Below, in pieces: positions 16,505-50,897 of a stretch of 56,839 bases of DNA. Where the stretch lies: contig JAFGPN010000018.1 in NCBI GenBank assembly GCA_016936175.1, positions 1-56,839 of the forward strand, in the 5' to 3' direction. Below the pieces are notes generated by a model, which had not been told where the DNA came from, made no database searches, and was given only the letters and a program-made list of their open reading frames with translations. Position 1 is the stretch's first letter; each line of letters begins with the position of its first letter. The translations under genes were made by a program, and so were the position numbers. This DNA is from Patescibacteria group bacterium. GTDB lineage: Bacteria; Patescibacteriota; Kazan-3B-28; UBA10110.

Positions 16505-16652
16505 TAGGAGCTCTGGGAGCCCCAAAATAACTCTTGACCCCATTAGAAATCGCTGATGAGACCTGCCAATGGGATCTACGAAGAGTGAAATGGCCCCCGA
16601 TTAATCGAAATACCAGGGCTACGCCCAAGGCTTCTCCGGACTTCTAAAGGGG

Positions 16653-21544: not shown

Positions 21545-21619
21545 GGGTGCGTAGTTCAGTGGTAGAACGCTGTCCTGATAAGACAGAAGTCGGAGGTTCG
21601 ACTCCTCCCGCACCCACCA
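21545..21619 (+). tRNA. tRNA-Ile(GAT)
   Basis: Cloverleaf, ctgtc-ctGATaa-gacag, CCA. Confidence 0.96.
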
Positions 21620-21718
21620 GTCTCCGCTACCTAAAGGTAGCTACGCCTGGCTCCGCCAGAGAATTTTTATAACTAGCGGAGACTGCCCTGCGTAGCTCAA
21701 GGAGCGAAGCATGGGCCA
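21620..21718 (+). repeat. tRNA-3'-associated structured repeat, copy 1 (others 22036-22125, 50364-50458)
   Basis: gtctYcgct...agcgRagactgccctgcgtagctc..gagYgaagcaYggg directly after CCA. Confidence 0.85.
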
Positions 21719-21959: not shown

Positions 21960-22035
21960 GGGCCCGTAGTTCATCTGGTAGAACATCGCATTTGCAATGC
22001 GGAGGTAGGCGGTTCGAGCCCGCCCGGGTCCACCA
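21960..22035 (+). tRNA. tRNA-Ala(TGC)
   Basis: Cloverleaf, tcgca-ttTGCaa-tgcgg, G3:U70, CCA. Confidence 0.95.
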
Positions 22036-22135
22036 GTCTTCGCTTCCTAACGGAAGCTACGCCTGGCTTCGCCACTATACAAAAGCGAAGACTGCCCTGC
22101 GTAGCTCAGAGAGCGAAGCACGGGCTGACCTAAAT

Positions 22136-43926: not shown

Positions 43927-44049
43927 ACGGGATGCGCCGTAGAGGGTTATCTCGGCCACGCCTGGATAGCGTGGATGGGCCAGGTTCCGGGAACACGGAA
44001 TTATTCGGTGGGAGCTAAGGTCTATAGGGGTTCAACTCCCCCATCCCGT
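43927..44049 (+). ncRNA. Putative tRNA-like structured RNA, unassigned
   Basis: 8-bp terminal stem acgggatg/catcccgt stacked on gggg-TTCAACT-cccc T-arm; two internal hairpins. Confidence 0.6.
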
Positions 44050-44056
44050 AGTTTTT

Positions 44057-44132
44057 GGCGGTGTAGCTCAGACTCTGGCAGAGCGCCAGGCTCATAACCT
44101 GGAGGCCGCGGGTTCGAGTCCCGCCACCGCCG
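44057..44132 (+). tRNA. Atypical tRNA(CAT), no encoded CCA
   Basis: ggcggtg/caccgcc acceptor, ccagg-ctCATaa-cctgg, GGTTCGAGTCC. Confidence 0.85.
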
Positions 44133-44210
44133 TACTTTGACAATTAGTTGAGGGTTGAGATATTCTGGCTCTTCTTGGCGCGGAACGCGTTGAAGAGCAA
44201 GGGGCTTGAG

Positions 44211-49059: not shown

Positions 49060-50118
49060 TTATAGGTTCTTCAGCTTAAATCGGCTAACACTAATCTTAT
49101 CATACGCCTTTATCAGGAACAATTTACCCGGCAGTTGCTTATAAGATAGCTTAGCCTTGCTATCAATTACTTTATGCATCTCAGTTAGGTGAACGGATTT
49201 GTAATCCTGCCGATCACCCCTCACCTCTGTTATCACCCAAAGCAACAGCTCGTTTTGAAGGTAAGGATGTAATTTATTAAATTGGGTTAGCCGAAAACTT
49301 ATCGACCTTTTGTCTCGTCGCAACTTTACCGCCTTTTTACTCTGAGCTAAGTGATCATTCAACAGATCTTCTAATCCTGACAAATTCTCCGCATTGCGTA
49401 AGATCACCTCTTTAATTTGAGGGTTTACCTTACGCAGTACGGGCAAAACCTGATGCCTAATCCGATTACGGGTATAAACTACCTGACGATTAGTTTTATC
49501 TTCCCGATAACCAAAGTGGAGTGTTTTGGCCAATTGGCGAAGCTCTGTTTTAGCTATTCCTAACAAAGGGCGCCAAACATTAATCCCTTGGGCCCGATCA
49601 GCTCTTAGAGGCAAAGGTTGCCACTCGCTCATTCCAATTAGCCCTCGTATGCCAGCCCCCCGGAGCCAGTTCATCACCACGGTTTCTACCTGATCATCGG
49701 CAGTGTGCGCCACCACTATCGTTTTAGCTCGATGGCGCTTAGCCACTCTATTTAAAAAATCATACCTGGCCACTCGAGCGGCCTCCTCGATAGTGTGCTT
49801 CTGTTTGCGAGCCAAGGTTCTGACCTCCACGCGGCCGGTTATCACAGACAGACCCAAACGATTTCCCACCCCCTTAACCCAGTGCTCGTCACTAATCGCC
49901 CGCCGACGAAGACGATGATTAAGATGCGCCACAATTAGCCGCCACTCATATTTGGCCGCCAGTGGGATAAGTAGATAAAGCAGCCCCATGGAATCCACTC
50001 CCCCGGAAACGGCTACTACCAGAGTCGACCGCCGAGGCGGCAACTTACGATTTTCGACCTGTGATAAAAGTCTGTCGATTAGCTGCACGATTTTATTATA
50101 TAGGAGTGGTATGGACAA
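49060..50118 (-). CDS. tilS: tRNA(Ile)-lysidine synthetase (start may be ~10 codons downstream)
   Basis: AVSGGVDS, HLNHRLR, AHTADDQVET, RPLL, RNRIRH. Confidence 0.95.
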   Translation of the reverse strand: MSIPLLYNKIVQLIDRLLSQVENRKLPPRRSTLVVAVSGGVDSMGLLYLLIPLAAKYEWRLIVAHLNHRLRRRAISDEHWVKGVGNRLGLSVITGRVEVRTLARKQKHTIEEAARVARYDFLNRVAKRHRAKTIVVAHTADDQVETVVMNWLRGAGIRGLIGMSEWQPLPLRADRAQGINVWRPLLGIAKTELRQLAKTLHFGYREDKTNRQVVYTRNRIRHQVLPVLRKVNPQIKEVILRNAENLSGLEDLLNDHLAQSKKAVKLRRDKRSISFRLTQFNKLHPYLQNELLLWVITEVRGDRQDYKSVHLTEMHKVIDSKAKLSYKQLPGKLFLIKAYDKISVSRFKLKNL

Positions 50119-50209
50119 AAGTCTGCTTTTTACCTAACCTAAATTACGCTATGCTAAAGGCGACGTGCCAACCTGTCAGGGTAGCTCAGTGGTAGAGCAG
50201 ATGGATTCA

Positions 50210-50327
50210 CCCCGTTAGAAATTAGCCAGCGTAGCTCAGTGGTAGAGCAGTGGACTCATAAGCCATTGGTCACAGGTTCGAATCCTGTCGCTGGCACCAA
50301 AATTGGCTGGATTTCTAACGGGGCAAG
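50210..50327. mobile_element. MITE-like element with 13-bp TIRs (CCCCGTTAGAAAT/ATTTCTAACGGGG) enclosing a tRNA
   Basis: Perfect 13-bp inverted repeats; GGGGCAAG end shared with the 19694 and 43067 elements. Confidence 0.7.
50225..50299 (+). tRNA. tRNA(CAT), probably elongator Met
   Basis: gccagcg/cgctggc acceptor, ctCATaa loop, GGTTCGAATCC, CCA. Confidence 0.92.
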
Positions 50328-50486
50328 TAAGCCTTACTAATCGCGGGCCTGCCCCTGACACCAGTCTTCGCTACCTTCAGTAGCTACGCCCGGCTTACGC
50401 CACCATAGAGACAAAAGCGAAGACTGCCCTGCGTAGCTCGAAGAGTGAAGCATGGGCCCTCGATTATTCTTGCTCAACCAAAAACT

Positions 50487-50897
50487 ATGGCTCAAGACCC
50501 ACTCGAACAGACAAAGAGAAAGCGCAAGTTGCGTTCCCAAATCTTAACGGCGGTCTTCGCCAGTGTCTTAGTGTATATGGCAGTGGGCACCGTCGAGGCT
50601 CTTTGGCAGAACTACGCCATCAATAAAGAGATCAACAAACTAAGAGCTGAAATCGTTCGACTCCAAGAGGAGGGTCGCCAGCTAAAATATTTAATCGCCT
50701 ACCTGGGTACCGAATCATTTAAAGAGCGAGAAGCTCGACGCAAACTGGGATACAAAAAACCCGGAGAACAGGTATTAGCCCTGCCCAATTCAATCTTAGA
50801 GGAGTTGTCTCCTGGGCAAGCTAACGGCAGTGATGACTTGGAGCTCAAGCCCGAGCTATCCAACCCCCAGAAGTGGAGTGAATTCATCTTTGGATAG
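50487..50897 (+). CDS. Septum formation initiator FtsB/DivIC family
   Basis: TM + coiled coil + EREARRKLGYKKPGE. Confidence 0.9.
   Translation: MAQDPLEQTKRKRKLRSQILTAVFASVLVYMAVGTVEALWQNYAINKEINKLRAEIVRLQEEGRQLKYLIAYLGTESFKEREARRKLGYKKPGEQVLALPNSILEELSPGQANGSDDLELKPELSNPQKWSEFIFG

Follow-up and report, generated by a model that had tools for sequence, protein, structure and literature searches.

A protein-less inverted-repeat cassette with its own tRNA(CAT) gene has probably replaced the cognate tRNA gene that it interrupts in a Patescibacteria group bacterium

MITEs and mobile insertion cassettes (for example, Correia elements of Neisseria and MICs of Bacillus) are short, protein-less, multicopy sequences with terminal inverted repeats. 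Phages, ICEs and pNOB8-type integrase elements insert into tRNA genes and restore them, and sublocation rules for integration within tRNA genes were reportedly set out by Williams in 2002. Addiction modules, such as toxin-antitoxin and restriction-modification systems, are selfish and are kept since their loss is lethal. An archaeal example of tRNA-targeting integrase elements is treated in Sugahara et al. 2012 (PMC3293823). Archaeal disrupted tRNA genes, with introns moved between tRNAs and split tRNAs, are described in PMC10714607, which cites Fujishima 2010 and 2009. REP/REPIN palindromes with RAYT transposases are covered in Di Nocera et al. 2013 (PMC3733652).

Here we describe a locus in which a tRNA gene lies inside an older tRNA gene within an inverted-repeat cassette. 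It occupies positions 50175..50363 of the window (the whole 56,839-nucleotide stretch of DNA analysed here), which is contig C18 of a 670-kb genome (G000; 18 contigs, ~90% complete). All parts of the locus are placed on the + strand. It opens with the 5' half of an outer tRNA relic (50175..50209), recognized from its sequence as the acceptor strand GTCAGGG, a D arm, the 5' anticodon stem and the loop bases TTCA. The left arm of a 13-bp inverted repeat (50210..50222; zero-mismatch match) and a 2-base spacer (50223-50224) separate this half from an inner tRNA(CAT) gene with encoded CCA (50225..50299), which is the working copy as judged from ARAGORN, Rfam (RF00005, 73.4 bits) and relatives. An 11-base spacer (50300-50310) then leads to the right arm (50311..50323), a zero-mismatch match on the reverse strand whose bases pair with those of the left arm in the predicted structure. 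CAAG (50324..50327), the fixed right-end tetranucleotide of tRNA-carrying copies, precedes the 3' half of the outer relic (50328..50363), which consists of TAA, the 3' anticodon stem, a degenerate T region, CCCTGAC and ACCA. The cassette thus measures 114 bases, with palindromic ends and an interior filled by a tRNA gene. Its arms are complementary at 13/13 positions and are the only zero-mismatch matches to the 13-mer in the window. TTCA precedes it and CAAG follows it, so that there is no target duplication, and no direct repeat of a tRNA segment (an att core) was found at the two cassette junctions.

The 189-nt stretch folds at -76.9 kcal/mol (z -4.05), and none of 200 shuffles folds as well. 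The predicted structure nests one helix in another, the outer acceptor stem enclosing a long inverted-repeat helix. Outer positions 50181-50200 are identical to inner positions 7-26 (20/20; E 3.4e-5 against the 670-kb genome), and the outer CCCTGAC complements the 5' strand GTCAGGG at 7/7 positions. For context only, the divergent neighbour at 49060..50118 (- strand) encodes a TilS-like PP-loop ATPase (Pfam ATP_bind_3, E 3.4e-53) and is followed on the same strand by FtsH and MurJ genes (Pfam), while the downstream neighbour at 50445..50897 (+ strand) is a DivIC/FtsB-type septum gene (Pfam DivIC, E 1.1e-13). The initial annotation, made from the sequence alone, had proposed a 7-bp outer acceptor followed by ACCA, an outer D arm identical to that of the inner tRNA, an insert with perfect 13-bp inverted repeats around a complete tRNA, and a setting between tilS- and ftsB-like genes; all of these are borne out. 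The genome carries four CAT tRNAs, of which the nested one, elongator Met or a lysidine tRNA-Ile2, adjoins the TilS-like gene; tRNA-Ile2 is the lysidine tRNA on which TilS acts. A further tRNA(CAT), at 44056-44133, stands out by an unusually long D loop and lacks an encoded CCA. Ahead of it, at ~44026-44050, a fragment that resembles a T arm plus acceptor (window 44026-44133) is possibly another relic.

ARAGORN and Rfam call only the inner gene at 50175-50363, and the outer tRNA goes undetected in Rfam at E up to 1. The loss of the outer T loop, noticed at the outset, is confirmed: 17 nt lie between the anticodon stem and the acceptor strand compared with 22 in the inner gene, and the TTCRA loop is missing. 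The outer gene also has one extra base ahead of the anticodon stem and forms 3/5 anticodon-stem pairs. The initial annotation held that removal of 50210-50327 restores a CAT anticodon loop. That removal does rejoin ggattCA^Taagcc, but the extra base and the poorly paired anticodon stem remain and no callable tRNA results; ARAGORN called no tRNA at this locus after insert removal at any of five excision boundaries. The outer gene of G002, a genome of the same genus, has kept its T arm, and excision of the insert leaves a sequence in which ARAGORN finds a tRNA of 76-81 nt, although none of the four excisions that yield a callable tRNA yields a CAT anticodon. Because the outer T arm is intact in G002 and the gene is callable after insert removal, and because the same acceptor type belongs to the working inner gene of two other relatives (G013 and G024), comparison among these genomes indicates that the outer gene was once a real tRNA.

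The cassette family shares with MITEs its short length, lack of proteins, inverted-repeat ends and many copies, and its cargo-free members have 4-bp duplications. It differs from them because its cargo is a complete tRNA gene cognate to the interrupted gene, because cargo copies have no target duplication (0/93) and have fixed asymmetric end tetranucleotides, and because an autonomous partner was not found among Y1 transposases and the listed arm places. As with integrase elements, insertion is into a tRNA loop, the element keeps the tRNA working and a tRNA fragment is left behind; however, the cassette has only 114 bp, no recombinase gene and no att-type direct repeat, and it brings a whole tRNA rather than a 3' part and splits its target on both sides. 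Archaeal disrupted tRNA genes likewise have inserts in D, anticodon and T loops, with a helix of the insert ends holding the halves. There, the inserts are removed or the halves joined at the RNA level by splicing endonuclease, for which G000 has no match, and the inserts carry no tRNA cargo; the outer gene here is a relic. A group I catalytic core in the insert had no Rfam match, and the insert is too short for one. REP/REPIN sequences are also small palindromic repeats that occur many times per genome and sometimes inside genes; by comparison, the cassette family lacks a GTAG or CGTC head and a RAYT in the genome, and has real 4-bp target duplications and tRNA cargo. The likeness to addiction modules is that of a selfish element that would be retained through lethal loss. 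The difference is that there is no toxin here, and dependence would come from a destroyed host copy with the sole spare in the element.

The 13-bp inverted repeat belongs to a dispersed family, in keeping with the mini-element proposed in the initial annotation. With at most one mismatch, the 13-mer has 44 matches in the 670-kb genome compared with 2 for a reversed control, and the hits pair into 32 elements, 30-287 bp long, whose interiors are of several unrelated kinds. Of these paired copies, 14/32 lie between perfect 4-bp direct repeats (TTGA, TCAA, TATA, TAAA, TTTA, TTAA, TTCA, TGAA and CTCA). These are true target duplications because the sequence changes on both sides together. The same arms occur at ≥119 loci elsewhere, in Patescibacteria, Deltaproteobacteria, Planctomycetota, Omnitrophota and others, according to a pattern-based scan of one genome per species that is a biased sample. 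Perfect 4-bp repeats flank 72/117 unique cargo-free copies from other genomes among the matches listed. Two large deltaproteobacterial genomes (G042 and G044) contain 201 and 159 copies of the 11-base arm core, mostly paired 30-260 bp apart, along with many Y1-transposase-domain proteins of ~325-340 aa that lack flanking arms. The search for other elements with these ends had been suggested with either cargo or a transposase in mind. It recovered cargo copies (around a tRNA-Val(CAC) of this genome and at metagenome loci) but no linked transposase. PF01797 (Y1 transposase) has no matches in G000 or G002, arms were not found beside the Y1 transposases of repeat-rich genomes, and the transposase search covered the Y1_Tnp family only. 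A longer element with the same ends (arm pairs 1-3 kb apart) is absent among the matches listed for five genomes, in which 281 further places lie outside those matches.

A second family member in the window, without a tRNA, lies at 16538..16652 between TTGA direct repeats and is one of seven copies that share an interior. The other six are at C1:12090, C4:36304, C7:1413, C12:46696, C13:4850 and C14:36415 of G000. Their interior begins CGCTGATGAG, the flanks are mostly TTGA repeats, and the right-hand TTGA often reads TTGACA, like a -35 box. A hammerhead reading of the CTGATGAG motif in this subfamily is supported by neither Rfam nor inspection. Another subfamily of 79 bp (C3:134-212, C7:3576-3655, C10:4720-4798, C14:55957-56035 and C15:21-99) has cassette-type flanks, TTCA ... 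CAGG/CAAG, with no callable tRNA, and 4/5 copies have a TATTATAG-like box ~10 nt downstream. These copies may be dead cassettes or promoter carriers.

Copies that carry tRNA genes are widespread in metagenomes. A scan for arms around a T-loop motif, with exact patterns, gave ≥121 loci, of which 95 are unique with an inner tRNA; like the scan of other genomes it is pattern-based, so that both counts are lower bounds from biased samples, with flanks of 130-150 bases. Among the matches listed, the inner tRNAs of the 95 unique loci are Val (45), Pro (17), Ala (12), Arg (8), Thr (4), Gly (3), Met (2), Leu (2), Gln (1) and Ser (1). The nested design thus recurs for at least ten amino-acid classes, and the architecture is found on more than 90 metagenome contigs. 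One of these loci (L153) has at least three arm pairs and is a deeper stack. Flanks match the halves of the locus' own inner tRNA above the 95th percentile of a control, the flanks of cargo-free copies, at 83/93 loci. Automated and approximate placement of the insertion site at 94 loci assigned 59 to the anticodon loop, 8 to the T loop and 4 to the D loop, with conflicting positions at 3 and no class at 20. Many metagenome loci lack anticodon bases in the outer loop.

The ends of tRNA-carrying copies are distinctive. No 4-bp direct repeat occurs at any of the 93 tRNA-carrying metagenome loci with enough flank among the matches listed. Instead, the flanks are fixed, TTCA at one end being combined with CAAG, CAGG or CGAG at the opposite end; TTCA/CAAG is the commonest pair (33/93), CAGG occurs in 7 more and the reverse-complement form in ~20 of the 93. 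Cassette polarity tracks the strand that bears CA or CG in the loop at 51/56 loci of seven one-strand tRNA types, a rule read by eye and found post hoc from the same data. Polarity runs one way in Val, Met, Leu-CAG and Gly-CCC and the other way in Pro-TGG and Thr-TGT, while Pro-CGG cassettes occur in both polarities, CG being identical on both strands. An exact junction rule, in which the fixed-end unit replaces the loop CA or CG, describes 24/94 loci plus 4 near variants, and loci outside it differ by a few bases. Models of the ends as integron attC, lox-like or serine-recombinase sites were rejected since the order of conserved triplets or the predicted shared core misfits the junctions.

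The inner and outer copies can be compared as alleles at 49 metagenome loci with ≥75% of the inner tRNA alignable; about half of the loci fell below 75%. Where both sides of a stem pair differ between inner and outer copies, 165/176 of the changed pairs still pair, compared with 37.5% expected by chance. Outer stem pairs are intact in 803/879 cases (about 91%) at these 49 loci. In the same way, set against the outer gene of G002, which is intact, the inner gene shows compensated changes at one acceptor pair and at four T-stem pairs. The persistence of pairing in 165/176 double changes implies that the outer copy is neither a decayed duplicate of the inner copy nor its parent. These compensated substitutions indicate that inner and outer copies are independently evolved functional alleles that diverged in different lineages or as paralogues. 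The outer copy is "older" only in this lineage, because another family has the inner and outer types the other way round.

That swap is evident in relatives. The 11 best loci among 40 related genomes were compared, with synteny judged by eye: six are fully nested (G002, G010, G011, G014, G013 and G024), one (G005) retains only the outer 5' half and left arm, and four (G004, G016, G021 and G015) have a plain, un-nested gene of inner type that is 94-97% identical to the inner tRNA(CAT). Homologous outer 5' halves occur in G002, G014, G010, G011, G005, G013 and G024. In G013 and G024, both members of that other family, the relic acceptor type of our locus is that of the working inner gene and the type working here is that of the split outer gene. 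The outer T arm is intact in G002 and G011; outer acceptor stems are perfectly paired with differing sequences in G000, G002 and G010 and have one G-U pair in G011. Decay of the outer gene also differs, with the T arm lost in G000 and the 3' half lost in G014, and extra small D-loop or T-loop inserts are present in the outer genes of G010, G011, G013, G024 and G005. G002 has an additional 5' half that combines an inner-type acceptor strand with an outer-type anticodon side, and each 5' half there is followed by a left arm. Unequal crossing-over between repeated halves would give such a hybrid, which means that some "layers" need no new insertion. No uninterrupted outer-type allele is present among these 11 loci. 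The comparison with relatives suggested in the initial annotation thus supplied an intact outer T arm (G002 and G011) but no empty outer-type allele, the four un-nested genes being of inner type. GC-rich perfect palindromes of 20-70 nt (e.g. cctgcctgccggcaggcaggg) occur in the D and T loops of outer relics at L004, L005, L006 and L007 and at C5:37018-37075 of G000, and look like a further small insert family.

A sequencing run of another study contains exact pieces that match 50111-50210 and 50181-50250 and extend across the boundary of the outer half, repeat and inner gene, but under a 31-letter rule the junction is not fully bridged. Logan contigs of the best-matching run cover the tRNA core only, no RNA run is listed for the stretch, and contigs of two metatranscriptome runs from the study of that best-matching run contain just short pieces of conserved tRNA sequence. 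The nested architecture is also present in the separately assembled genomes G002 (97% identity) and G014 (93%), and the relatives range from 79 to 97%. Neither outcome that might have undone the initial annotation came about: an artefact is unlikely, and relatives have intact outer copies while copies of the repeat are dispersed.

Other tRNA genes of this genome have nests or repeated fragments, with partial duplicates near 10/40 tRNAs. On contig C12, the 13-bp repeat of our locus, again flanked by TTCA/CAAG, encloses a nested tRNA-Val(CAC). A tRNA-Gln(CTG) is also nested (C14:92098-92397, L018); outer pieces adjoin it on the 5' side (positions 1-19) and on the 3' side (56-74), and it is bracketed by a different 11-bp inverted repeat, TTTTTTCACGC / GCGTGAAAAAA. 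Repeats of 19-26 nt from tRNA 3' ends surround other small inserts at other tRNAs. At tRNA-Ser(CGA), Ser(GGA) and Gln(CTG) (C10:9702-9916, C16:4511-4724 and C14:92098-92276; L016-L018), a related insert of ~100 nt follows the tRNA and is succeeded by a 19-nt repeat of the 3' end of that tRNA that begins in the T loop (AATCC...CCA). At tRNA-Asp, Ala(CGC) and Glu(TTC) (C8:61-340, C17:6618-6892 and C5:36621-36987; L013-L015), a second, GC-rich insert family of ~170-270 nt opens with a T-arm-like hairpin and is followed by a 20-26-nt repeat of the tRNA 3' end.

The outer relic of our locus is itself followed by a tRNA-trailer repeat (50364..50458, + strand). The initial annotation had linked this sequence to real tRNAs, and rightly so: the repeat, of ~95 nt, begins precisely at the CCA in six real tRNAs, as it does in the outer relic. 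Copies are present in the window (50364-50458, 21615-21717 and 22031-22125), elsewhere in the genome (C4:17718-17813, C12:55751-55841, C3:18726-18804 and C15:64940-65016) and in relatives. The repeat has an 8-bp outer stem and a second hairpin, with a stem that covaries between copies. Rfam at E up to 1 matches neither the trailer repeat nor the two insert families at other tRNAs.

The locus is most likely explained by DNA-level gene replacement, in which a protein-less palindromic cassette with its own tRNA(CAT) lies inside the resident cognate gene. The cassette comprises the 13-bp inverted repeats, with TTCA at the left and CAAG at the right, around a complete tRNA(CAT) gene, and it interrupts a resident paralogous tRNA(CAT) within the anticodon loop, following loop position 35. 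On this account the inner tRNA is the functional one; it would be transcribed from the promoter of the resident gene, with the outer 5' half included in the transcript, and then released by ordinary tRNA end-processing enzymes. The split resident gene is a relic that has since lost its T arm. Loss of the cassette would remove the only good copy of this tRNA type, which would favour its retention. As the initial annotation had suggested, the tRNA type may then be essential and the cassette undeletable.

How the cassette arrives can be narrowed from its ends. A cassette between TTCA and CAAG should not have arrived by the 4-bp-duplication route of cargo-free copies, and the missing duplication, fixed asymmetric ends and strand rule together argue against that route. 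From their sequences, the junctions look like those of a fixed-end unit placed beside CA or CG of a 7-nt tRNA loop, on the strand that carries the dinucleotide. Chance insertion followed by selection alone is disfavoured because duplicated cassettes at neutral sites would then be expected, and 0/93 are seen. Selection surely adds to the pattern, as an insertion survives only if the cargo covers the loss, and once the resident gene is destroyed its cassette is shielded from deletion in a shrinking genome. Spread by homologous recombination via the tRNA halves seems unlikely: the outer anticodon stems next to the cassettes differ between loci and remain paired within each locus, whereas donor stems would be imported with the cassette. 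A broader reading, which we advance tentatively as a possibility that falls short of a firm expectation, is that these elements form a widespread class of protein-less "self-complementing" tRNA cassettes (TTCA ... CARG). Such cassettes would enter the 7-nt loops of cognate tRNAs, mostly the anticodon loop and at times the T or D loop, beside CA/CG on the strand with that dinucleotide and without duplication, and would inactivate the residents and assume their role. Given that inner and outer copies evolved independently, the cassettes would also move tRNA alleles between lineages and, by serial replacement in Patescibacteria, leave layered relics.

Several other explanations need to be weighed against gene replacement. 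The outer halves and the helix could be selected as part of the inner-tRNA precursor, either as a clamp that presents the inner tRNA to RNase P and 3' trimming enzymes or as a two-piece tRNA-like RNA. Such a conserved processing scaffold would suit a nest that is common to two families of the order, outer acceptor stems that are paired with compensating differences in four genomes and perfect here despite the lost T arm, the strong fold of the locus (z -4.05) and the 803/879 intact outer stem pairs at 49 metagenome loci; stems kept this well (~91%) require that insertions be frequent and recent or that the outer halves be under selection. However, the outer gene decays in various ways at this locus among seven genomes (G000, G014, G010, G011, G013, G024 and G005), four relatives do without outer halves and have a plain gene, the outer acceptor of the nested Val gene of this genome no longer pairs, and about half of the metagenome loci are not alignable over 75%, so that we consider a scaffold improbable. 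We regard as slightly more improbable still a local rearrangement, with duplication in place and a palindrome made by replication template switching, which would involve no mobile element. Halves at this locus do recombine, as the hybrid 5' half of G002 attests, and partial duplicates lie close to many tRNAs of the genome. The differences between inner and outer copies contradict local duplication, since they are compensatory (five such pairs in G002), as in diverged functional alleles; the same repeat and end tetranucleotides also enclose tRNAs for ≥10 amino-acid classes across unrelated metagenomes, and the repeat exists in cargo-free form with target duplications.

RNA-level processing, in which the insert is removed as an intron or the outer halves are joined as a split tRNA so that both tRNAs are made, is very unlikely. 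The anticodon-loop position fits such processing, the long helix could hold the halves together and outer genes are intact in G002 and G011, but the enzymes expected for it, splicing endonuclease (PF01974) and RtcB ligase (PF01139), are unmatched in the ~90%-complete G000, with control matches to these profiles in 4 and 10 of 14 genomes, respectively. Nor did Rfam match group I or another such family, whether at gathering score or with E as high as 1. No excision gives a callable tRNA in G000 or a CAT anticodon in G002, and the outer anticodon bases missing at many loci mean that no single excision restores the loop there. An assembly or binning artefact that joined tRNA reads of two strains has a negligible chance of being correct. 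Conserved tRNA genes and repeat-rich regions that misassemble would favour it, as would read support that comes from contigs and does not include all junctions; nevertheless, the architecture recurs in separately assembled relatives at 79-97% identity and on more than 90 metagenome contigs, and exact pieces across the boundary of outer half, repeat and inner gene are present in a run of another study.

Our literature search found no description of nested bacterial tRNA genes or of the 13-bp repeat, with most subscription journals outside its coverage. tRNA finders call the inner gene and miss the relics, which can make counts of tRNA genes and of integration sites misleading. Fixed ends and the missing duplication point to an insertion chemistry unlike that of cargo-free relatives, and hence to an enzyme or pathway to be found. 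If the broader reading of gene replacement by tRNA cassettes is correct, it would describe a gene-replacement drive without a gene of its own, by an insertion route so far undescribed, in which a selfish element of ~100 bases is made indispensable by breaking an essential single-copy gene and supplying the sole spare. It would imply that tRNA alleles are exchanged between lineages, and it would account for the broken pieces and stacked remnants found near tRNA genes in ultra-small bacteria, which affect 10/40 tRNAs here.
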